Below, one piece after another: positions 5,376 through 30,503 of a stretch of DNA of 32,000 nt. Where the stretch lies: positions 862,778 to 894,777 of the forward strand of contig NC_006461.1 of assembly GCF_000091545.1 (NCBI RefSeq), in the 5' to 3' direction. Position 1 is the stretch's first letter; every line of letters begins with the position of its first letter. The notes below the pieces were generated by a model, which made no database searches, was not told where the DNA came from, and saw only the letters and a list, made by a program, of their open reading frames with translations. Both the position numbers and the translations under genes were made by a program. This DNA is from Thermus thermophilus HB8 (GTDB lineage: Bacteria > Deinococcota > Deinococci > Deinococcales > Thermaceae).

Positions 5376-6620
5376 ATGGACTTGGACGCCTTCACCCTCT
5401 TTGAGCGGCACATCAACCCAGGCCTCGCCGGGCTTCTCCGCTTCACCGGGCTAGACCGGGTGGAGTCCCACGCCGAAGGCCCCTACGTCTGGGACACCCA
5501 GGGCAAGCGCTACCTGGACTTCCTAGGCCTCTACGGCACCCTGAACCTGGGCCACCGCCACCCCAAGGTGGTGGAGGCGGTCAAGCGGCAGCTTGACCGC
5601 ATGCCCATGTCGGTGCGGGTCCTGGTCTCGGAGCCCACGGCCAGGCTTGCCGCAAAGCTCGCCGAGATCACCCCGGAGGGCCTGGAGATGGTCTTCTTCG
5701 GCAACTCCGGGGCCGAGGCGGTGGAGGCCGCCATCAAGCTGGCCCGGGCCTACACCGGCAAGCCCGGCATCGTCACCACCCAAGGGGGGTTCCACGGCAA
5801 GACCATGGGGGCGCTCTCCCTCACCCCCAAGCCCGAGTACCAGGACCCCGCAAGGCCCCTCCTCCCCGGGGTCAAGGTGGTGCCCTACGGGGACCTAAAG
5901 GCCCTGGAGGAGGCCATAGACGAAACGACCGCCGCCGTGATCGTGGAGCCCATCCAGGGGGAAGGGGGCATCCGGGTGCCCCCCGAGGGGTACCTGAGGG
6001 GCGTGCGGGAGCTTACCCGGGAAAAGGGCGTCCTCATGATCGCCGACGAGGTGCAGACCGGCCTCGGCCGCACGGGGAAGCTCTTCGGGGTGGACTGGGA
6101 GGGGGTCTCCCCGGACCTCATGACCCTGGCCAAGGCCCTGGGGGGCGGGGTGATGCCCATCGGGGCCTGCGTGGGGCGGCGGGAGGTCTTTGAGGTCTTC
6201 AAGAATAACCCCCTCTTCCACTCCTCCACCTTCGGGGGGAACCCCCTGGCCGCGGCCGCCGCCCTTGCGGCCATTGAGGTCACCCTGGAGGAGGACCTCC
6301 CGGGGCGGGCCCTGGAGCTCGGCCGCCACCTGATGGAGGGGCTAAAGGTCCTCAAGGAGGAGCACCCCCACCTCATTGAGGACGTGCGCGGCCGGGGGCT
6401 CATGGTGGGCGTGGAGTTCGCGGACGCCGACATCGGCGCCCTGGTGGTGGCGGAGATGGCGGAGAGGGGCGTCCTCACCGCCTTCGGCCTGAATAACCCC
6501 AAGGTGGTCCGCCTCGAGCCCCCCCTGATCATCGGCAAGGAGCACGTGGACGAGGCCCTCGCCGTCTTCGCGGAGGCCCTCAAGGCTACGGAAAAGGCCC
6601 TCGAGGGCCTTCTAGGTTGA
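5376..6620 (+). CDS. class-III PLP-dependent aminotransferase (acetylornithine/ornithine/GABA/putrescine type)
   Basis: 414 aa. FFGNSGAEAVEAAIKLAR, ADEVQTGLGRTGKLF and HSSTFGGNPLA motifs. Confidence 0.9.
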   Translation: MDLDAFTLFERHINPGLAGLLRFTGLDRVESHAEGPYVWDTQGKRYLDFLGLYGTLNLGHRHPKVVEAVKRQLDRMPMSVRVLVSEPTARLAAKLAEITPEGLEMVFFGNSGAEAVEAAIKLARAYTGKPGIVTTQGGFHGKTMGALSLTPKPEYQDPARPLLPGVKVVPYGDLKALEEAIDETTAAVIVEPIQGEGGIRVPPEGYLRGVRELTREKGVLMIADEVQTGLGRTGKLFGVDWEGVSPDLMTLAKALGGGVMPIGACVGRREVFEVFKNNPLFHSSTFGGNPLAAAAALAAIEVTLEEDLPGRALELGRHLMEGLKVLKEEHPHLIEDVRGRGLMVGVEFADADIGALVVAEMAERGVLTAFGLNNPKVVRLEPPLIIGKEHVDEALAVFAEALKATEKALEGLLG

Positions 6621-6621
6621 A

Positions 6622-8856
6622 ATGCAGGAAACGCTTTTAGAGTTTTTCAAGAAGACGGGGAGGCCGCACCGGCTGGAGGAGATCCTGCACCGGTTCGGCC
6701 TGGAGAAGCGGGAGGCCAAGGCCCACCTTAAGGCCTTGGTGGCGCGGGGGCTTCTGGAGAAGAAGGGAAGCCGGTACTTCCTGGCCAACCGGGTCCAGGG
6801 GCCCTTAAGCCTCCATCGGGACGGGTACGGCTTCGTCCGCCTCCCCGAGGGGGACCTCTTCGTCCCCCCGGGGTACACGGGGGACGCCTGGCCGGGCGAC
6901 CTGGTGGAGGCCCGCGTCATGCCCCCGGGCCGGGACGGAAGGCCTTGGGGGGTGGTGGAGCGGGTCCTCAAGCGGGCGCGGGAGCGGCTCGTGGGGACCC
7001 TGGACTTCCGGAAAGGCCGCGCCCTGCTCCTCCCCGACGAGCCCAACCTCCCGGAGCTTCCCCTCGCCCCCGAGGGGCTTGAGGGCCTGAAGCGGGGAAG
7101 CCGCATCGTGGTCCAGGTCCACTACGGCAAGCGCCCCTACGGGACCTTCCTTGCGTACCTGGGGGAGGGGGAGGCCCCCGAGACGGAGACGGAGGCCGTC
7201 ATCGCCAAGTACGGCCTCCGCGCCGAGTTCCCCGAGGAGGTCCTGAAGGAGGCGGAGGCCATCCCCTTGGAGATCCCCGAGGCGGAGCTTAGGCGGCGGG
7301 AGGACTTCAGGGGCCTTCGGGTCTTCACCATAGACGGGGTGGACGCCAAGGACTTTGACGACGCCATCCACGTGGAGCGTCTGCCTGGGGGCTACCGCAT
7401 CGGGGTCCACATCGCCGACGTCTCCCACTACGTCAAGGAGGGAAGCCTCTTGGACCAGGAGGCCTTCCTCCGGGGCACCAGCGTCTACCTCCCGGGGCGG
7501 GTCCTCCCCATGCTTCCCGAAAGGCTTTCCAATGGGGTCTGCTCCTTGAGGCCGGGGGAGGACCGCTTGGTCCTCTCCGTGCTCGTGGACCTCACGGAGG
7601 ACCTAAAGGTCAAGCGGGTCCGCTTCCGGGAAGGGGTCATCCGGAGCGTCGCCCGCCTCACCTACACCGAGGTGGAGGCCTTCGCCGAGGGCTTCGGCCT
7701 TCCCGAGGAGCACGCCTTCCTGGCGGAGGACTTGCGCCTCCTTTTGGACCTCACGCAGAGGATGCGGGAGAAGCGCCTAAAGGAGGGCGCCTTGGACTTC
7801 GCCTTCCCCGAGGTGAAGGTGGAGGTGGGGGAGGAGGGGGAGCTTCACCTCATCCCCCAGGCGGAGCCCAAGGCCAGAAGCCTCATTGAGGAGCTGATGC
7901 TCCTCGCCAACCGGCTGGTGGCGGAGTACCTGGTGCAAAAGGGCCTCCCCGGCCTCTTCCGCGTCCACGAGGAGCCGGTCCAGGACGCCTACGAGAAGCT
8001 CCGCCAGGCCCTGGCCCGCCTGGGCTATACCCTCCCCCCCAAGCTTTCCGGCCACGCCCTGCAAAAGGCCCTCCTCGCCTCGCGGGGCCGCCCGGAGGAG
8101 CCCGTGGTGGCCTACCTCGTCCTCCGCTCCTTGCGCCTGGCCCGCTACGCCCCGGAGAACCTGGGCCACTTCGGCCTCGCCATGGAGCACTACCTGCACT
8201 TCACGAGCCCCATCCGCCGCTACCCGGACCTGGTGGTCCACCGGGTGCTGAAGGCCGCCTTGCGCCGGACCCTCACCCCGGCGCGGAAGGCGCGGTGGCA
8301 AGAGGCCTTTCCCGCCATCGCCGAGCACGCTTCGGAGATGGAAAGGAAGGCGGAAGCCGCCGAGAGGGAGCTCACCAAGTACTACATGGCCAAGTGGGCC
8401 GAGCTCCACGTGGGGGAGCGCTTCTTGGGGAAGGTCACCGGGGTGGCGAACTTCGGGGCCTTCGTCACTTTGCCCAACGGGGTGGAGGGGCTGGTGCGCC
8501 TCGAGGCCCTGGGGCCCTACACCTACAGCGAGGAGGCTATGGCCCTCCTCGGCCCCAAAGGGCGGAGGATCCGCCTCGGGGACGAGATGGAGGTGCGGAT
8601 CGCCGGGGCCAACCCGAGGCTTAGGCAGGTGGACCTCCTCCCCGTGGAGGAGGCGCCCAAGAAGACCAAGAACAGGAAGGAAAAGGCTAAGGAGGTGGAG
8701 ATGCGCAAAGTGGTAGGACCCCCCAAGGACCGGGCCCGGGACACCCGTCCCGAGCGGGCCACGGTGAACACCATCTACTTCGGCGAGTGGACCCCCAAGG
8801 AGCCCGAGGAGCCCCGCCCGGAGAGGACCCGGGCCCGCAAAAAGCGGCGCCGCTAA
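6622..8856 (+). CDS. rnr: ribonuclease R
   Basis: 744 aa. RNB domain motifs (TIDGVDAKDFDDAIHVE, HFGLA...YLHFTSPIRRYPDLVVHR), an S1 domain (GKVTGVANFGAFVTL) and a Lys/Arg-rich tail. Confidence 0.93.
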   Translation: MQETLLEFFKKTGRPHRLEEILHRFGLEKREAKAHLKALVARGLLEKKGSRYFLANRVQGPLSLHRDGYGFVRLPEGDLFVPPGYTGDAWPGDLVEARVMPPGRDGRPWGVVERVLKRARERLVGTLDFRKGRALLLPDEPNLPELPLAPEGLEGLKRGSRIVVQVHYGKRPYGTFLAYLGEGEAPETETEAVIAKYGLRAEFPEEVLKEAEAIPLEIPEAELRRREDFRGLRVFTIDGVDAKDFDDAIHVERLPGGYRIGVHIADVSHYVKEGSLLDQEAFLRGTSVYLPGRVLPMLPERLSNGVCSLRPGEDRLVLSVLVDLTEDLKVKRVRFREGVIRSVARLTYTEVEAFAEGFGLPEEHAFLAEDLRLLLDLTQRMREKRLKEGALDFAFPEVKVEVGEEGELHLIPQAEPKARSLIEELMLLANRLVAEYLVQKGLPGLFRVHEEPVQDAYEKLRQALARLGYTLPPKLSGHALQKALLASRGRPEEPVVAYLVLRSLRLARYAPENLGHFGLAMEHYLHFTSPIRRYPDLVVHRVLKAALRRTLTPARKARWQEAFPAIAEHASEMERKAEAAERELTKYYMAKWAELHVGERFLGKVTGVANFGAFVTLPNGVEGLVRLEALGPYTYSEEAMALLGPKGRRIRLGDEMEVRIAGANPRLRQVDLLPVEEAPKKTKNRKEKAKEVEMRKVVGPPKDRARDTRPERATVNTIYFGEWTPKEPEEPRPERTRARKKRRR

Positions 8857-9323: not shown

Positions 9324-10418
9324 GTTGCAAGGGATTGAGCCCCGTAAGGGGATTGCGACTCGTAAGCGATAACGGGGAGGGCGACGCCAATCGCGTTGCA
9401 AGGGATTGAGCCCCGTAAGGGGATTGCGACGCCACGGCGTACGCCGCCGCCCAGAGGGCCTTCTGGTTCAGGTTGCAAGGGATTGAGCCCCGTAAGGGGA
9501 TTGCGACTTTGCGAGGATTACCCCCTCGGTGGGCCCGAGGAGGTTCGTTGCAAGGGATTGAGCCCCGTAAGGGGATTGCGACCACGTCCCTCACGACCGA
9601 GGCCAGGGACGTCTTCACGTGGTTGCAAGGGATTGAGCCCCGTAAGGGGATTGCGACCTCCCTCCTTTCCCGCCTATCTTACTCCCCCATGAGGTGTTGC
9701 AAGGGATTGAGCCCCGTAAGGGGATTGCGACACTTCAAAGTGAAGGAGCCTAGGGGCTTGGTCATAGACTGGCGTTGCAAGGGATTGAGCCCCGTAAGGG
9801 GATTGCGACGGCGAGGAGCCGCCGCACCCCGATGATCTTGCCGTCGGAGTTGCAAGGGATTGAGCCCCGTAAGGGGATTGCGACCATTGGCGTGGGTGCC
9901 ACCCCGCCTACGCCGATGCTACGGGTTGCAAGGGATTGAGCCCCGTAAGGGGATTGCGACTTTGCCCTTCTAGGGCCTTCTGGAGTTCGTGAAGGTTCGC
10001 CACGTTGCAAGGGATTGAGCCCCGTAAGGGGATTGCGACCTTCAGGAATGGGCACGCCCACCTGCCGGAGAAGTTCAATGTTGCAAGGGATTGAGCCCCG
10101 TAAGGGGATTGCGACCTAAGCAGGAGGAGGCCCACGGCCTGGTAGAGGCCAAAATAGTTGCAAGGGATTGAGCCCCGTAAGGGGATTGCGACATCTCTAA
10201 CCAGGCTACGGAGAGGATAGTGGAACTCTACCGGGTTGCAAGGGATTGAGCCCCGTAAGGGGATTGCGACTATCAAGGGTCTTCCGCAAGCGGAAGGCGC
10301 GCGGGGAGTGTTGCAAGGGATTGAGCCCCGTAAGGGGATTGCGACCAGCCCGCTCCATCTCGGCCAGCTCTAGGGCGTGGGGACCAGTTGCAAGGGATTG
10401 AGCCCCGTAAGGGGATTG
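9324..10418 (+). CRISPR. CRISPR array, leader-proximal part: 14 full 36-nt repeats plus the first 32 nt of repeat 15
   Basis: Repeat GTTGCAAGGGATTGAGCCCCGTAAGGGGATTGCGAC starts at 9324, 9395, 9472, 9547, 9622, 9696, 9774, 9849, 9925, 10004, 10080, 10157, 10235, 10310 and 10387. Spacers are unique and 35-43 nt long. The 3' ATTGCGAC matches the 8-nt crRNA 5' handle known for Thermus type III systems, so transcription is on the + strand. Confidence 0.97.
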
Positions 10419-10433
10419 ATACTGTCTTGCCTG

Positions 10434-11578: not shown

Positions 11579-11952
11579 CGACTCGGTTATGGCCCTCCAA
11601 AAGGCCCTTGTCTTCTCCAGTTGCAAGGGATTGAGCCCCGTAAGGGGATTGCGACCACCTCACCTCCACTCGCTTATCACGCGCCTCCACCAATGGTTGC
11701 AAGGGATTGAGCCCCGTAAGGGGATTGCGACGGGGTCATAGATCCAGTCCCTAGGCGGGCCGAGGCGAATCCGTTGCAAGGGATTGAGCCCCGTAAGGGG
11801 ATTGCGACTTGCTGATTGTGAATGATGCCCATTCCTCCTTAGAAGGAAGTTGCAAGGGATTGAGCCCCGTAAGGGGATTGCGACGCTCGTCACGGGAAGC
11901 GCAAAAAGGTAGCTCCTAAGGGTTGCAAGGGATTGAGCCCCGTAAGGGGATT
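11579..11952 (+). CRISPR. CRISPR array, distal part: last 4 nt of repeat 15, four full repeats and a 31-nt truncated terminal repeat
   Basis: CGAC at 11579-11582. Full repeats at 11620, 11696, 11773 and 11849. A truncated repeat at 11922-11952 ends in GGGGATT. Spacers are 37-41 nt. Confidence 0.95.
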
Positions 11953-12030
11953 ACTGTCTTGCCCATCAAGCGACCCCTTTGTCGTGGGTGAAGGCCTGTA
12001 CCCCTCGCGCTAGGAGGCTTTCACGCAGGC
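11953..12030 (-). mobile_element. remnant of the 3' end of a second, related IS110-family element
   Basis: 11953-11979 matches the IS end 10421-10447 at 25 of 27 nt (ACTGTCTTGCCyrTCAAGCGACCCCTT). The reverse translation ends ...FTHDKGVA*, compared with ...ATQLDQGVA* in the intact transposase. The inner boundary is uncertain. Confidence 0.45.
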
Positions 12031-26211: not shown

Positions 26212-27123
26212 TTATGCGCTGGGGGAAGGGCGGGCCTCCCCGAAGAGGTGGAGGAAGAGGGCCTCGAGGCTCGGCGTCCCCCGGGAGACCTCGAGGACCT
26301 CCACGGGGAAAGCCCCCAAGGCCTCCCGTAGCGCCTCCCACGGCCCGAGGAAGAAGAGGACCTCGGGGCCTTCCGCGCTCCAGCCGGGGCCTAAGGCCTG
26401 GAGGAGGGCCTCCGCCTTGGGCTCGGCGAGGCGCACCCGGTACCCCTCCCCGGCCCACTCCCGGAGAAGGACCCGGGTGGGGCCCTGCCGCCGCACCTCC
26501 CCCCGGTGGAGGAAGGCCACGCGGTCGCTCACCCGCTCCACCACCTCGAGGTCGTGGGAGGTGAGGAGGATGCCCCAGCCCTCCTTCTTAAGCTCCAGGA
26601 GGATCCCCTCAAACTCCCTCCGGCTCACGGGGTCCAGGCCCAGGGTGGGCTCGTCCAGGAGGAGGAAACGGGGCTTGAGGGCGAGGGCCAGGGCCAGGGC
26701 CGCCTTCTGCTGCATGCCCCGGGAGAGGGAGGCGAGAGGGGCGTGGAGGCGGTCCTTTAGGCCGAAGCGCTCCAGCCAGGCCTCAAACCGGGGGCGGACT
26801 TCCTTTGGGGGAAGCCCCCGGATGCCCCCGAAGTAGAGGGCGTTCACCAGGAGGCTCAGGTTGACGTAGAGGTTGCGGCTTCCCTCCAGGAGGACGCCGA
26901 ACTCGTGGCCCTGGGGTCTGCGCCGCGCCCCGCCCTCCTCCAGGACCACCTCTCCCCCATCGGGGAGGAGGAGGCCGAGGACGACCTTGATGAGGGTGGT
27001 CTTGCCTGCCCCGTTGGGGCCCAAAAGGCCCAGGATCTCCCCGGCCCCAAGCTCCAGGCTCACCCCCTTGAGGGCCTCCAGCTTGCCGAAGCGCTTGTGG
27101 ACGTTCTGCACCAAAAGCCGCAT
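26212..27123 (-). CDS. ABC transporter ATP-binding protein (ABC-2 / DrrA-CcmA-like type)
   Basis: Walker A GPNGAGKTT, signature LSRGMQQK and Walker B LLLLDEPT. The start overlaps the upstream permease stop (TGATG). Confidence 0.92.
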   Translation of the reverse strand: MRLLVQNVHKRFGKLEALKGVSLELGAGEILGLLGPNGAGKTTLIKVVLGLLLPDGGEVVLEEGGARRRPQGHEFGVLLEGSRNLYVNLSLLVNALYFGGIRGLPPKEVRPRFEAWLERFGLKDRLHAPLASLSRGMQQKAALALALALKPRFLLLDEPTLGLDPVSRREFEGILLELKKEGWGILLTSHDLEVVERVSDRVAFLHRGEVRRQGPTRVLLREWAGEGYRVRLAEPKAEALLQALGPGWSAEGPEVLFFLGPWEALREALGAFPVEVLEVSRGTPSLEALFLHLFGEARPSPSA

Positions 27124-27884
27124 CAGTACCTCCCTAATAGGCCCCTCCGCCGCACCGCCGCGTAGACCCAGGCCATGGCGAAAAGCCCCGCCCCGAGGAA
27201 GAGGAGGGCTTGGACCAGGGCCAGGAGGAGAAGCCCCGGAGAAACCTCCTCCCCTGTGAAGGCGAGCCGGAGGAGGTAGGCCCCCGGGGCAAAGGGCAGG
27301 TGGGTCATCCAGGGCTCAAACCGGACCAGGGAGAAGAAGTAAGGCAGGAAGAGGAACTGGACGATGGTGAAGAAGCCCTCCACCCGCTTGAACTGGAGGG
27401 CCAAGGCCCCCATGCCGAGGGCGAAGCCCAAGGCGGCGAGGTACAGGGGCAAAAGGCCCAGGGGCCACCAGGAGGCGGGGGTGAGCCTAACCCCGAGGAG
27501 GAGAACCAGGGGAAGAAGGGTAAGGAGGTTAAAGGTGATGCCGGCGAGACCCTGCACGAGGGCGCGCAGGAGAAGCTGCCGGAGAAGCCCTCCTCGGGCC
27601 AGGCCCAGGTGCTCCAGGGTGCCTAAGGCGGCCTCGGACTGGACGGAATAGGCGATGGACTGGAAGGTGCCCACCACCAGGTTGAAGGCGGCGAAGACCA
27701 GGAGGAGGGGGCCCAGGTCCAGGCCCAGGCTCGCCAGCCCCTCGGGGGTCAGGTTCTCCAGGCCGAGGACCATGGAGTAGAAGAAGAGGACGGAGGCCAG
27801 AAGCCCCGCCAGGGTGTCAAACCAGTAGCGCTTGGTAAGGCTCCAGTCAAGAAGGATTTCGCTCCAGAGCTGCCAGAGCACCAT
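27123..27884 (-). CDS. ABC-2 type transporter permease (paralog 2)
   Basis: Six predicted TM helices and clear homology with the adjacent permease (for example GTLEHLGLARGGLL vs GTIEHLSLARGGLL, and HLPFAPGAYLLRL vs YLPFAPGAHLVRL). Start is taken at ATG 27884, 5 nt after the upstream stop. Confidence 0.8.
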   Translation of the reverse strand: MVLWQLWSEILLDWSLTKRYWFDTLAGLLASVLFFYSMVLGLENLTPEGLASLGLDLGPLLLVFAAFNLVVGTFQSIAYSVQSEAALGTLEHLGLARGGLLRQLLLRALVQGLAGITFNLLTLLPLVLLLGVRLTPASWWPLGLLPLYLAALGFALGMGALALQFKRVEGFFTIVQFLFLPYFFSLVRFEPWMTHLPFAPGAYLLRLAFTGEEVSPGLLLLALVQALLFLGAGLFAMAWVYAAVRRRGLLGRY

Positions 27885-27889
27885 GCCCC

Positions 27890-28645
27890 CTAGAACCTCC
27901 CCAATATACCCCGCCTGCGGACTAGGCGGTACATGTAGGCCATGGCCCAAAGGCCCGCCCCGAAGAGGAGGAGGCCCTGGAGGAGGGCCAGGAGGAAGAT
28001 CTCCCGGTCAAACTCCCCGCCCGTGAGCCCAAGCCGCACCAGGTGGGCCCCTGGGGCGAAGGGGAGGTAGGCCATGTAGGGCTGCCATTGGGTGAGGGAA
28101 AGAAAGTAGGGGAGCAGTATGAAATTGAGCACAATAAAAAGGTTATCTACCCGCCTAAAGAGAAGTCCCAAGGATCCCATGAGGAAAGCTAAGCCGAGGT
28201 TTATTGGAAAGAAGGCCAACACACCAAGCGGCCACCACCAGGAGGGTTGGAAGGAAATGCCGCTCACCCAGTAGAGCACTAGGAGCACCGCGGCGGCATA
28301 CAGCCCCCCGTTTAGGCCAAGGACAAAGGCCCTTACCGTTAACTGGGTAAGTAGCCCTCCTCTTGCTAGAGAGAGGTGCTCTATGGTCCCAAGCATGCTC
28401 TCGTTCAAAATATTCAAAGCAAATGTTCGCCAAAGGGCCCCTGCGAATTCGGAGACACCGTATAAGGCGAGCAGAGAGCCTAGGTCTAGGTCTGATAAAG
28501 ATGTCTTCGTTACGCTTTTCAAGCCGATTAAGATGGCATAGAAAAACAGTACATCTGCCAACATTCCGGAGAGGAAGTTGAGCCAATATAGCTTGTAGTG
28601 CTCCAACATCAACCTTACTTCGGCCAACCACTGGAACCGGTTCAT
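27890..28645 (-). CDS. ABC-2 type transporter permease (paralog 1), compositionally mosaic
   Basis: 251 aa: MNRFQWLAEVRLMLEHYKLYWLNFLSG.... The 5' two-thirds (about 28100-28645) use many A/T-ending codons. The 3' third is host-like in GC content. Confidence 0.8.
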   Translation of the reverse strand: MNRFQWLAEVRLMLEHYKLYWLNFLSGMLADVLFFYAILIGLKSVTKTSLSDLDLGSLLALYGVSEFAGALWRTFALNILNESMLGTIEHLSLARGGLLTQLTVRAFVLGLNGGLYAAAVLLVLYWVSGISFQPSWWWPLGVLAFFPINLGLAFLMGSLGLLFRRVDNLFIVLNFILLPYFLSLTQWQPYMAYLPFAPGAHLVRLGLTGGEFDREIFLLALLQGLLLFGAGLWAMAYMYRLVRRRGILGRF

Positions 28646-28663
28646 CGCTTTATTCCGGAGTGT

Positions 28664-28711
28664 GAGGCCAAGGTGCCTTGACTTCTTCGCTGCGCAGGCT
28701 ACCTTGGCCTC
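28664..28711 (-). other. 11-bp hairpin between the small ORF and the ABC-2 operon
   Basis: GAGGCCAAGGT (28664-28674) is the reverse complement of ACCTTGGCCTC (28701-28711), with a 26-nt loop. There is no U-tract, so it is not a canonical terminator. Confidence 0.5.
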
Positions 28712-28727
28712 CTTACCTAGGCCTCAG

Positions 28728-28832
28728 CTACCAAAGCTTGGTGTTGTGGACGCAGCCCGAATTCTGCCCACAATTGTAGCCACAGTCGCCGCTAGGAGCT
28801 ATACGCAGTCCAGGCTTCACGACCCACCGCAT
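28728..28832 (-). CDS. candidate small Cys-rich peptide (34 aa): MRWVVKPGLRIAPSGDCGYNCGQNSGCVHNTKLW
   Basis: Translated by hand; it is below the ORF-track size cutoff. The ATG at 28832..28830 is preceded by GAAAGGAGGTGA plus 5 nt, a 12-nt match to the complement of the 16S rRNA 3' tail. The stop is TAG at 28730..28728. It sits between two hairpins inside a co-directional operon. Confidence 0.5.
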   Translation of the reverse strand: MRWVVKPGLRIAPSGDCGYNCGQNSGCVHNTKLW

Positions 28833-28857
28833 CCTCCTCACCTCCTTTCCCTAGCCC

Positions 28858-28894
28858 GTGCAGGGGCGAGGTGCCGGCTCTGCCTCGCCTGCAC
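28858..28894 (-). other. bulged hairpin between the lipoprotein stop and the small-ORF Shine-Dalgarno
   Basis: On the minus strand: GTGCAGGCGAGG, an 11-nt loop, then CCTCGCC(CC)TGCAC. Confidence 0.4.
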
Positions 28895-28896
28895 GT

Positions 28897-29856
28897 TTAA
28901 AAACACCTGGAGTTGGACGAAGAACGCCTGCTTGAGTAAATCCTAAGATCTGTCCACTGGTAATAGTACCCCGCCCAGGCTGAGCTGTAGCACCCCGTGC
29001 TTCCGTAGGCCACACTCATGCACTGGGAAGTGGGCCAACCCGAGTCGTAGCAGGGTGGAGGCCAGTCGTTCGCCGCCTTGGCGCTGGTCCGGGTTTCCAC
29101 CTGGCCCCAGATGATGCTGCCCGTAGAGCAGCTGGCGAAAGCGTAGGCCTTAGCCCCAGGAGAGGCTGTGGTGGGCATGGCCGAGGCCGCCAAGCTACAG
29201 GACGGGAAAAGGGACTGGGGGCCCAGGTGCTGGACCAGGAGGGGAAAAGTATCCAGACCCACCACCATTCCCCCATCAGAGGTCTTGAGCTTCGGGGGCA
29301 AACCCTGGAAGTCTCCACCCCCAGGGAGGTTCTCCGGACCGTACCGTTTCATCTGCCCCACAATTTCCCCCAGCTTCGCCCTAAGTTCCTGGCGTTGCGG
29401 TTCCTTCAGGGGGAGAGGGATCCTCTCCAAGAAGGCCCTTTCCAGGACGCTTACCACAAGCTCCTCGTCGGACCAAAGAGCCTGCTGCTCCTTCACAAAG
29501 CGCAGCTGTTCCTCCCAGAATGCCTTTTCCTCGGAGGTGGCTTGGGCCATCCTTCCCTGGGCGTATTCAGCGAACTTCCGCACGCTTTCCTCGCTCAAAA
29601 GAGGTGGCGCTATATCCAGGGAAACCCTCCCCTCCCCCTCCCGGTACCGGATTCCGGGGGCGAGTTCCATCCAGGCAGCGGATTGATCGGGGGATTGGGA
29701 AGGCGTTGCGGTTGCCGCTCCCCGCCCGCAGCCCGCAAAAAGACCAGAGAGAACGACCAGGAGCGCCAAGGGCACTCTTGAACTCCAGGCGAAGGGCCTC
29801 ACGTGGATCCGCCGCATCCGGCCGCCGACCTTGACCTCCTGCACTTCCTTGAGCAT
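28897..29856 (-). CDS. lipoprotein of unknown function with a Cys/aromatic-rich C-terminal domain
   Basis: Signal peptide with lipobox ...PLALLVVLSGLFAGC. Helical middle region. C-terminal region of about 110 aa with six Cys (SCS, SCS, PPPCYDSGW, SQCM, TGCY, RCF). ATG 29856 has GGGGGTGA 5 nt upstream. Alternative starts are GTG 29865 and ATG 29817. Mid-GC codon usage unlike its neighbours. Confidence 0.7.
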   Translation of the reverse strand: MLKEVQEVKVGGRMRRIHVRPFAWSSRVPLALLVVLSGLFAGCGRGAATATPSQSPDQSAAWMELAPGIRYREGEGRVSLDIAPPLLSEESVRKFAEYAQGRMAQATSEEKAFWEEQLRFVKEQQALWSDEELVVSVLERAFLERIPLPLKEPQRQELRAKLGEIVGQMKRYGPENLPGGGDFQGLPPKLKTSDGGMVVGLDTFPLLVQHLGPQSLFPSCSLAASAMPTTASPGAKAYAFASCSTGSIIWGQVETRTSAKAANDWPPPCYDSGWPTSQCMSVAYGSTGCYSSAWAGYYYQWTDLRIYSSRRSSSNSRCF

Positions 29857-29901
29857 CTCCTTCACCCCCTTACGGGTTAGCCTCAGGGTAGCAAGAGGAA
29901 G

Positions 29902-29962: not shown

Positions 29963-30319
29963 GTGGGCCGGGGTAGCCTTCAGGCGTGCGGCTCTTGTGG
30001 CTTCTCCTTGACCTCCTCGGGGGCTCTGGGGTCCTTCCCCAGTGCTTCGTCCCCTGCTGCCTGCCTCCGGGGCCGGGGCTCTAAGGCCCCACTCCCCCCT
30101 GAGCCTTGCCACCCGGGCCCGGGCGATGGGGCGGCGGGGATCCTGGGAGGGTAGCCTCTCCAAGAGGGCCTCCCAGACCTCCAGGTCCTCCCCCAGGCGC
30201 TCGGCCTCTGGGAGGCCTTCTTGGGGAGTTTGGAGGAGGGCTTCCGCCTCCCGGTCCCTGCCCTCCTCCAGGAGGCGGAGGACAGGAGCCAGGGGGCTTG
30301 CCGGGAAATCCAGGGCCAC
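29948..30319 (-). CDS. hypothetical protein, possibly a disrupted gene
   Basis: GTG start. The first roughly 78 codons (VALDFPASPLAPVLRLLEEGRDREAEALL...) have host-like GC3. The last roughly 45 codons switch to A/T-ending codons, and another frame looks equally plausible there. Confidence 0.3.
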   Translation of the reverse strand: MALDFPASPLAPVLRLLEEGRDREAEALLQTPQEGLPEAERLGEDLEVWEALLERLPSQDPRRPIARARVARLRGEWGLRAPAPEAGSRGRSTGEGPQSPRGGQGEATRAARLKATPAHVTSA

Positions 30320-30332
30320 GGAGCCATTTTAG

Positions 30333-30503
30333 ACGTGCGGGGGCCTGGGCTTTTGTTCCTTGGCCCGGTACCGGGACCTGCCCTTGGGCTTCGCCGATGC
30401 CGCGGTTGTCGCCATGGCGGAGCGGAATGGGGGCCTGGTCCTAAGCCTGGACCGGCACTTTCACATGGTGGCGCAGGAGGGGACCATCCGGGTACTTCCC
30501 TAA
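30333..30503 (+). pseudogene. PIN-domain (VapC-like) toxin gene remnant, C-terminal about 45 aa only
   Basis: Hand translation gives ...[46 protein letters not shown]. This matches the C-terminal PIN pattern (DA..vA.A...g..l.t.D.dF). An in-frame TAG lies at 30330-30332. There is no N-terminal half and no antitoxin gene. Confidence 0.6.

Follow-up and report, generated by a model that had tools for sequence, protein, structure and literature searches.

The stretch of DNA analysed here, referred to as the window, comprises 32,000 nucleotides of the Thermus thermophilus HB8 chromosome (NC_006461.1, positions 862,778 to 894,777), and all coordinates without a locus handle count from its first letter. 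The minus strand of the window contains a short open reading frame (ORF, 28728-28832) that is a genuine precursor peptide gene. The encoded peptide of 34 amino acids (aa), MRWVVKPGLRIAPSGDCGYNCGQNSGCVHNTKLW, has the conserved N-terminal motif MRWVVKP and a core that includes three C-x-x-N units (CGYN, CGQN and CVHN). Read from 28851 to 28728, the minus strand gives GGGAAAGGAGGTGAGGAGG followed by the ATG at 28832, 34 sense codons and a TAG stop (28730-28728). The extended Shine-Dalgarno (SD) region GGGAAAGGAGGTGAGGAGG (28833-28851) includes the exact 12-mer GAAAGGAGGTGA at 28838-28849, with 5 nt between the 12-mer and the ATG. An earlier inspection of the letters without database searches, referred to as the sequence-only reading, had proposed this ORF, its 12-nt SD match, the 5-nt spacer and a C-x3-C-x5-C-x-H spacing in the peptide, all of which are present.

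Taken alone, the count of SD matches is statistically weak: GAAAGGAGGTGA has one exact copy in the 32-kb window, and allowing at most one mismatch results in 2 sites versus 0.40 expected. The SD element is, however, kept in all related loci, with a 14-nt core (GGAAAGGAGGTGAG) that is the same in every Thermus locus and a spacer to the ATG that varies in length. An in-frame GTG at 28841 would yield a peptide of 37 aa. Because this GTG lies off-frame in alleles whose spacer is longer by 1 nt (loci L001, L019, L028 and L029; such handles denote related loci throughout), and because all relatives start with M-x-W, the ATG at 28832 is the start. The expectation that the gene would be unannotated holds only in part: a peptide with the exact window sequence has already been called as a gene on 71 contigs, but a functional name is absent from all sources checked, and a sister allele is named 'hypothetical protein' at NCBI. 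Scans of the window peptide against Pfam and NCBIfam gave nothing useful, including no match to the Clo7bot peptide family (TIGR04333) at E <= 1, and an exhaustive phmmer search with the 34-mer returned its own cluster only, the long matches being translated tandem repeats.

The precursor gene is followed on the same strand by a stem-loop (28664-28711), two paralogous permease genes and an ATP-binding cassette (ABC) transporter ATPase gene, present as described in the sequence-only reading. Permease 1 (27890-28645, minus strand, 251 aa) and permease 2 (27123-27884, minus strand, about 253 aa when counted from the ATG at 27884, whereas the ORF finder places the start farther out, at a TTG at 27950) are 45% identical to each other. 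The ATPase (26212-27123, minus strand; PF00005) is DrrA-like, with a score of 163 bits against the DrrA subfamily model, below its cutoff of 312, and of 133 bits against the lantibiotic-protection model TIGR03740 (cutoff 309.75). The label ABC-2 for this transporter is tentative. Pfam does not recognise the permeases; the ATPase is DrrA-like, and in hhalign the permease weakly matches an established ABC2_membrane permease, at a probability of 25% and E = 7.7e-4, the motif GTLE being common to both. The permease profile has no match in the PDB. As suggested before, the order of precursor, stem-loop and transporter is that of operons for bacteriocins or for peptides that are made on the ribosome and modified after translation (RiPPs).

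The stem-loop starts 16 nt past the precursor stop and folds with -31.5 kcal/mol (z = -2.9). Eight types of the variable cassette described below each have their own, sequence-unrelated stem-loop just after the peptide stop (z = -1.7 to -5.3), and this constant position fits a conserved role in the ratio of precursor to transporter transcript. Of two hairpins thought to bracket the ORF, the downstream one is real, whereas the upstream one (28858-28894) is no better than shuffles (z = -1.1) and is what a deleted radical SAM gene has left of its 3' coding end. A scan for terminators and promoters found nothing at either hairpin, and a scan of the window with Rfam found no RNA family in 28.6-28.9 kb, its matches being CRISPR repeats and a tRNA elsewhere.

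Precursor alleles and the permease cassette

Related loci were collected from three sources. An alignment of the lipoprotein encoded upstream of the precursor gene was scanned over one genome per species (eight loci), metagenomes were scanned for the SD+ATGCGGTGG pattern (14 further loci), and look-ups of homologues of the maturase described below added three more Thermus loci (two genome assemblies and one metagenome-assembled genome, MAG). The Thermus set consists of 25 loci, fetched via the SD+ATG motif or via the Thermus maturase. Four of the eight loci from the lipoprotein scan keep the SD and the first seven codons with their ATG, and the remainder of the small ORF is wholly different, yet open and Cys-containing. 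Conservation of the frame in homologous loci had been put forward as a check of the gene; the 25 Thermus loci yield 21 complete copies, and all 21 have an open frame. With the SD and start context conserved as well, the claim of a real and highly translatable small gene is borne out.

The Thermus loci encode 10 intact distinct peptides of 26-34 aa, among the precursors MRWIVKPAPLTAPNWCIRNCGINGVK beside the window peptide, and one variant disrupted by an insertion sequence (IS; L016). All Thermus peptides share the N-terminus MRW[IV][VRL][KR]P, and each ORF terminates shortly upstream of its stem-loop. The family hence has the composition of RiPP precursors, that is, a conserved leader followed by a variable core with modifiable residues: the N-terminal motif is constant, and cores that cannot be aligned keep C-x-x-[ND]. 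In L016 (4155-5315, peptide-oriented) the variant MRWILKPDSKKRDSFVCYLKAPPPPSSGEPDSG is followed by unrelated sequence and no permease, probably a disruption by insertion.

Besides the three units of the window peptide, units such as CIRN-CGIN, CIIN-CGIN and CIGN-CGKN are found in other cores. Asn or Asp is found at position +3 of 15 of the 22 Cys in distinct Thermus-clade cores, a count reached by none of 20000 core shuffles. Four window-type alleles differ at 7 positions, 5 of which are x residues of C-x-x-N; none of the three Cys varies, nor does the Asn at +3 that belongs to each. In sister alleles, His29 is replaced by Ile or Ser. A site for zinc or another metal built from three Cys and this His (C3H), a reading close to the metal-binding peptide considered earlier, is rejected on the exchange of His29, set against the invariant Cys and their +3 Asn. 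Synonymous-biased substitution had likewise been named as a check, and the opposite is observed: the nonsynonymous proportion exceeds the synonymous one in the peptide (pN versus pS of 0.109 vs 0.059 and of 0.082 vs 0.022, pN/pS about 1.8 to 3.7, from small counts), and pN/pS in the adjacent permease is 0.24-0.44.

The variable part of the precursor gene belongs to a hypervariable cassette of low GC content (28113-28811, minus strand, about 48-55% GC) that extends from peptide codon 8 across the stem-loop to approximately the first 178 codons of permease 1. When the window operon is compared to the other loci by blastn, its flanks show 87-95% identity, which breaks off after peptide codon 7 and resumes at about residue 178 of permease 1; between types nothing aligns in the cassette. 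The ORF as a whole lies within a low-GC island (48-63% GC at about 27900-29850, versus about 69% around it).

Permease 1 is the variable subunit and co-varies with the peptide type: downstream of every window-type peptide comes a permease that shares 88-94% identity with permease 1, and the permeases that follow other peptide types are 41-55% identical to it. Permease 2 is the 'constant' subunit, 89-97% identical to the last permease of other loci, and it is optional. Depending on the locus, one, two or three permeases precede the ATPase, which is 82-99% conserved across loci. Co-occurrence of peptide and ABC genes, another check proposed at the outset, holds for the window-type peptide and permease 1-like proteins, but it does not extend to two distant loci (L027 and L032) that lack such a transporter. 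Two loci harbor an orphan permease between the window-type cassette and the constant permease (L030, 8398-9153; L014, second permease). This orphan shares 99% identity with the permease downstream of the MRWIVKPSRVQPLGDPGCGG... (L001-type) peptide in L028, and that peptide is absent in L030 and L014.

The radical SAM/SPASM maturase of intact loci

In the intact Thermus loci a gene for a 476-aa protein ends 18 nt before the peptide ATG (L010, L012/L009, L013, L015, L016, L018, L021 and L028-L030); in L028, from T. thermophilus, it lies at 6001-7431. The precursor ORF is co-oriented with this gene and directly beside it in L010, L012, L013, L015, L016, L018, L021 and L028-L030, and the same adjacency is found in the distant loci L023-L025, L027 and L032; in the window only 15 maturase codons are left. 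The statement of the sequence-only reading that no maturation enzyme is present is correct for the window, as judged by tblastn, but not for the family, which has a radical SAM/SPASM maturase directly upstream of the peptide in intact Thermus loci.

The maturase carries CNFGCDYC at residues 124-131 (PF04055, 57.5 bits, cutoff 29.5) and a SPASM domain (TIGR04085, 55.5 bits, cutoff 27). Cys 352, 371, 414, 417, 427 and 446 are invariant, and Cys423 is found in at least 90% of the sequences; the protein accordingly has both the CxxxCxxC motif and the C-terminal SPASM Cys of radical SAM/SPASM enzymes. The two top NCBIfam models are the RiPP maturase TIGR04463 (367.5 bits) and the Clo7bot maturase TIGR04334 (260.8 bits), followed by the CefB, FlmE/OhkG, geopeptide, PapB (104 bits) and SCIFF (82 bits) maturases. 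With a cutoff of 525 bits TIGR04463 is a nearest neighbour only, and the protein does not belong to Clo7bot either, for which the maturase cutoff is 600 bits and the best Thermus peptide reaches 15.8 bits (E = 0.009) versus a cutoff of 31. 'Clo7bot peptide maturase' is nonetheless the NCBI name of some Thermus copies. In the searchable literature library there was no experimental paper on TIGR04463 or Clo7bot and nothing specific on OhkG, FlmE or CefB or on a Thermus radical SAM RiPP.

An AlphaFold (AF2) model of the maturase, built with 26 homologues, has a mean confidence (pLDDT) of 87.7. In this model an N-terminal domain (residues ~27-108) with the order beta-beta-beta-beta-alpha-alpha-beta-alpha, of the RiPP recognition element (RRE) type, precedes the radical SAM barrel. 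Over its full length the fold matches the thioether synthase CteB best (5WHY/5WGG, E = 9e-18), with anSME, TigE and SuiB as later matches. CteB is also the top sequence match in the PDB, and identity to characterised enzymes is approximately 15-21%. The fold match to CteB, the matches to the PapB and SCIFF models and the Cys/Asn pairing of the cores would point, indirectly, to the sactipeptide/ranthipeptide class.

More distant homologues of the maturase (47-56% identity; L023, L025, L027 and L032, from Deinobacterium chartae and metagenomes, reaching into other phyla) also have Cys-rich peptides encoded downstream, with N-termini of the form M-x-W-[IVL]-V-x-P or M-K-[VF]-[IV]. For example, the locus of Deinobacterium chartae (L023) encodes the peptides MEWIVSP... 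and MKWIVNP..., the second of which (L023b) has Asn or Asp at +3 of 10 of its 10 Cys, and L025 encodes eight tandem paralogues that start with M[TSKN]W[IVL]V[NSLP]P.... Two peptides of 20 residues ending in ICGVN[DN] are encoded in L027 and L032, with no such ABC transporter nearby. Since the peptide follows the maturase even in the absence of the transporter, the peptide family tracks the maturase and not the transporter.

Two further observations concern these distant relatives. The eight precursor genes of L025 (5490-6893) encode 46-59 aa each, with C-x3-C repeats and in most cases a KCYRR end; they lie downstream of a 55%-identical maturase and are followed by an ABC ATPase and an ABC2_membrane permease that Pfam does recognise. 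In L026 (4572-6629) and L031 (404-2488), which derive from one cyanobacterial and one alphaproteobacterial MAG, true TIGR04463 maturases adjoin proteins of approximately 690 aa with crystallin/ricin domains, of which the one in L031 has 30 Cys. The N-termini of these large proteins, VQFVVEP and VQYVIQP, resemble the leader motif of the short peptides, which hints that a leader-like tag may direct the modification of large proteins too.

Loss of the maturase in the window

In the window, tblastn with the maturase recovers residues 462-476 only (KRAGEAEPAPRPCTG, 28898-28854). The remnant (28851-28896, minus strand, from tblastn and blastn) consists of the last 15 codons (..RAGEAEPAPRPCTG) and the stop TAG at 28851-28853. 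The regulator of 487 aa is reduced to residues 1-43 and 447-487 (30083-30319, minus strand, tblastn), which are joined in frame at an AERL repeat; the open frame runs on to 29948, with about 84 homologous residues left. To place the junctions, the window was aligned by blastn to the intact T. thermophilus locus L028. Both are 92% identical on the tpiA side and again from the middle of permease 1 through the ATPase, aminotransferase and E1 genes. The window also retains the spacer between regulator and maturase (30093-29880) and, at 28897-28812, the final 47 nt of the maturase gene with the SD and seven codons, while the N-terminus of a PIN protein, a ribbon-helix-helix (RHH) antitoxin, an IS, the middle of the regulator and the maturase ORF are missing. 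Of the PIN-domain toxin, the C-terminal 47 residues are left (30360-30503, plus strand), 91% identical to the intact 131-aa PIN protein of L028. The truncation of the PIN/RHH pair is a third lesion at this site.

The exact slot of the maturase ORF is filled by a lipoprotein gene (28897-29865, minus strand). The junction TAA|ACGTGCAGG... is common to all lipoprotein-type loci, among which three different peptide types are found, and no maturase is present within the fetched flanks of these loci. Lipoprotein and intact maturase never occur together in the 25 Thermus loci. Homologues of the lipoprotein are found in Thermus only, also at unrelated sites without a peptide (L004, L005, L007 and L008), and an unrelated 324-aa protein that holds the same slot in L029 has the first 32 codons of the lipoprotein in common with it; the shared stretch looks like a recombination arm. 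The structural model (pLDDT 83) predicts a helical bundle and a C-terminal seven-stranded beta-sandwich, with six conserved Cys, and the protein matches no Pfam or NCBIfam family and no PDB fold below E = 1e-3. The sequence-only reading had regarded the lipoprotein as the partner of the peptide. As a partner in maturation or immunity it is rejected, because it is absent from maturase-bearing loci; we conclude that it is cargo that displaced the maturase and lies outside the peptide system. Ten contigs that carry the window allele unchanged match the window at about 100% identity and are built alike.

In L029 (3613-5742), L030 (1760-5742) and L001 (53-4227), the stretch from the regulator to the maturase or peptide is a variable cargo slot. 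It holds varying mixes of the WD40-like 324-aa protein, major facilitator superfamily (MFS) transporters and ORFs without assigned function, and short arms are reused at the junctions. In L014 (1200-3344, peptide-oriented) an IS transposase cuts the maturase at residue 95, so that the RRE-like domain is gone, and the peptide and three permeases are intact. In L009/L012 a 1-nt deletion in a G-run shifts the frame within the SPASM domain of the maturase, which is either real or a homopolymer sequencing error. Across loci, the maturase would thus have been lost along at least two independent routes.

Interpretation and rival explanations

We consider it likely that the ORF is the precursor gene of a Thermus RiPP system, and that the locus in the window is a degenerate form which kept the precursor and the export or immunity transporter and lost production. 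The intact system is located at the same chromosomal site, between tpiA and an aminotransferase gene, and consists, in this order, of the regulator (487 aa), the maturase (476 aa), the precursor, the stem-loop, one to three ABC permeases and the ABC ATPase. In the proposed mechanism the RRE-like N-terminal domain of the maturase would probably recognise the peptide N-terminus M-R-W-[IV]-V-K-P, and the radical SAM cluster together with the SPASM auxiliary clusters would probably cross-link each Cys to the residue at +3, usually Asn. The outcome would be two or three small thioether rings, in the window at CGYN, CGQN and CVHN. The strong SD and the stem-loop would keep expression of the precursor high relative to that of the transporter, the ABC transporter would carry the product out, protect the cell from it, or both, and the variable permease would supply the specificity for a particular core.

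We infer the Cys-to-(+3) thioether chemistry from the invariant Cys/Asn pairs, the fold kinship with CteB and the precedents of NxxcB and PapB. A role in antagonism and the specificity of the permease are suggested because orphan permeases exist and transporters are retained after maturase loss. Intact in the window are the precursor gene with its SD, both permeases (the cognate and the constant one) and the ATPase. Most likely, the strain no longer makes the mature product, the transporter is kept as immunity, and the precursor gene is a recent, still intact relic.

Several points weigh against this reading. The type of cross-link and its partners are deduced from motif conservation and distant homology, and the maturase scores below the curated cutoff of every named family, so that its reaction could differ. 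One core type (MRWIVKPSRVQPLGDPGCGGRMPAPCPQR; L024 variant) lacks C-x-x-N and has Arg or Lys at +3. The permeases find no match at E <= 1 in Pfam and NCBIfam, the ABC2_membrane models (PF01061/PF12698) included. Loss of the maturase is known from 32 kb of the genome, and a second copy elsewhere is possible. The precursor ORF in lipoprotein-type loci is undecayed, is identical in more than 10 contigs and has a perfect SD; it may still be in use, or the replacement may merely be recent. Finally, a signalling or pheromone role in place of antagonism is possible.

A broader picture can be drawn tentatively, and we regard its parts, taken jointly, as possible rather than probable. Thermus would keep a polymorphic RiPP antagonism locus at a fixed site, with a swappable low-GC cassette that joins the core to the specificity region of the permease. 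The tandem Cys-x-x-Asn thioether rings would constitute a ring topology not yet described. Orphan permeases would be stacked and the maturase repeatedly lost (by replacement, by an IS, possibly by frameshift), giving rise to immune non-producers, and M-x-W-[IV]-V-x-P would be the cross-phylum recognition tag of this maturase clade.

Among the alternatives to the degenerate RiPP locus, a strain-specific signalling pheromone of a pherotype system, with the co-varying permease as dedicated exporter and not as immunity, is unlikely, though less so than the others. Allelic, sharply bounded cassettes that join a core to its processing or export partner typify pherotype loci, and a large regulator gene is adjacent. 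The regulator, however, shows no visible co-variation with the type of cassette (L004 and L028 have regulators that are 99% identical). Orphan permeases without peptide accumulate (L030/L014), and transporters persist where the maturase is lost (window, L014); both patterns are better explained by immunity stacking than by signalling.

The peptide could also be functional in this strain, either matured in trans by an enzyme encoded outside the window or exported by the adjacent transporter as an unmodified disulfide or metal-binding peptide. We judge this to be quite improbable, although every lipoprotein-type locus has a fully intact ORF, perfect SD and cognate permease, and the window is only part of the genome. 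Three lesions coincide at one locus (the maturase is replaced, the regulator internally deleted and the toxin-antitoxin module truncated), the fetched flanks of the lipoprotein-type loci hold no maturase, and His29 of the putative C3H site is unconserved. As the ten contigs with the exact allele are about 100% identical to the window, there was no time for decay to show.

A cis-acting leader peptide, which the sequence-only reading had considered, is very unlikely. In this case translation and the stem-loop would control the ABC transporter, and the peptide as such would be without function. In its favor are the strong SD, the shortness of the ORF and a stem-loop that begins 16 nt past the stop, ahead of the permease gene. 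Against it are the residue-by-residue conservation of Cys and Asn in otherwise unrelated cores, peptides that follow a maturase without an adjacent transporter (L027, L032) and tandem paralogous copies (L025); the stem-loops have no consistent U-tract, so that no classic attenuator is apparent. A frame that is open by chance between genes, with the SD-like sequence as an RNA element only, could draw on the shortness of the ORF and the weak statistics of a single SD match, but is effectively refuted by a frame that is open in every complete copy with at least 8 unrelated cores, by the shared amino-acid motif and conserved start context, and by the gene calls of the exact allele on 71 contigs.

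Two other peptide classes were considered. A microcin B17-like azole peptide is rejected, since no YcaO/cyclodehydratase is found in any locus, and a leaderless helical bacteriocin is rejected because the Gly/Asn/Cys-rich core is always beside a maturase.

With respect to known systems, the locus is of the radical SAM/SPASM-modified, Cys-rich RiPP kind; its core motif, its leader length and its tie to a polymorphic permease cassette set it apart. TIGR04463 and Clo7bot (maturase TIGR04334, Cys-rich peptide TIGR04333), which are defined computationally, provide the two best maturase models, and short Cys-rich precursors follow directly downstream of the Thermus maturase. The N-terminus of one Thermus precursor weakly matches TIGR04333 (E = 0.009), and neighbours of true TIGR04463 members start with a similar VQ[FY]V[VI]xP motif. 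The Thermus precursors differ from both in being single-copy, 26-34 aa long, built from C-x-x-N units and fused into a polymorphic ABC permease cassette, whereas the leader-like neighbour in the two true TIGR04463 loci (L026, L031) encodes a protein of approximately 690 aa.

As in CteB of the thermocellin (SCIFF) system, PapB and NxxcB, the Thermus maturase combines radical SAM and SPASM domains with an N-terminal RRE-like domain, and as in ranthipeptides and sactipeptides, the Thermus cores repeat a motif of Cys and acceptor, with Asn or Asp as the conserved partner. The radical SAM enzyme NxxcB forms Asn-x-x-Cys beta-thioethers, and Asn is thereby a proven acceptor (PMC9389541). PapB is described as forming Cys-X3-Asp thioethers (PMC9413430). 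In NxxcB the Asn is upstream of the Cys, and in PapB/freyrasin the acceptor is at +4; in Thermus the Cys comes first and, judging from the motif, the acceptor would be at +3. Relative to ranthipeptides and sactipeptides, the conserved leader of the Thermus peptides comprises only 7 residues, and the cross-link is a prediction from sequence.

The transporter resembles the LanFEG/LanI self-protection of lantibiotic producers, in that one ATPase and two small paralogous permeases, as well as a lipoprotein gene, lie beside the structural peptide gene, and it resembles bacteriocin loci with orphan immunity genes in its varying number of permeases and orphan copies. The locus in the window is nonetheless no member of LanFEG/LanI: the ATPase remains far below the TIGR03740 cutoff (133 versus 309.75 bits), the permeases match no LanE/G or ABC2 Pfam model, and, unlike LanI, the window lipoprotein has replaced the maturase; loci with a maturase lack it, and it also occurs at unrelated sites.

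Elsewhere in the window, two CRISPR repeat blocks (9324-10422 and 11620-11954, plus strand; Rfam CRISPR-DR36) comprise 21 repeats in total and are separated by a repeat-free gap of approximately 1.2 kb; the array may have been split by an insertion.

For annotation, we note that the peptide genes of this family are usually uncalled or 'hypothetical', and that the lipoprotein beside the peptide gene should not be annotated as a pathway member. The very short tag and the simple, repeated C-x-x-N unit make thermostable enzyme-substrate pairs attractive for peptide macrocyclisation. With the family, an anonymous 34-codon ORF becomes part of a defined and testable natural-product system of extreme thermophiles, with a maturase clade that has no characterised member, and the locus constitutes a compact natural experiment on how producer, immune and cheater genotypes evolve.

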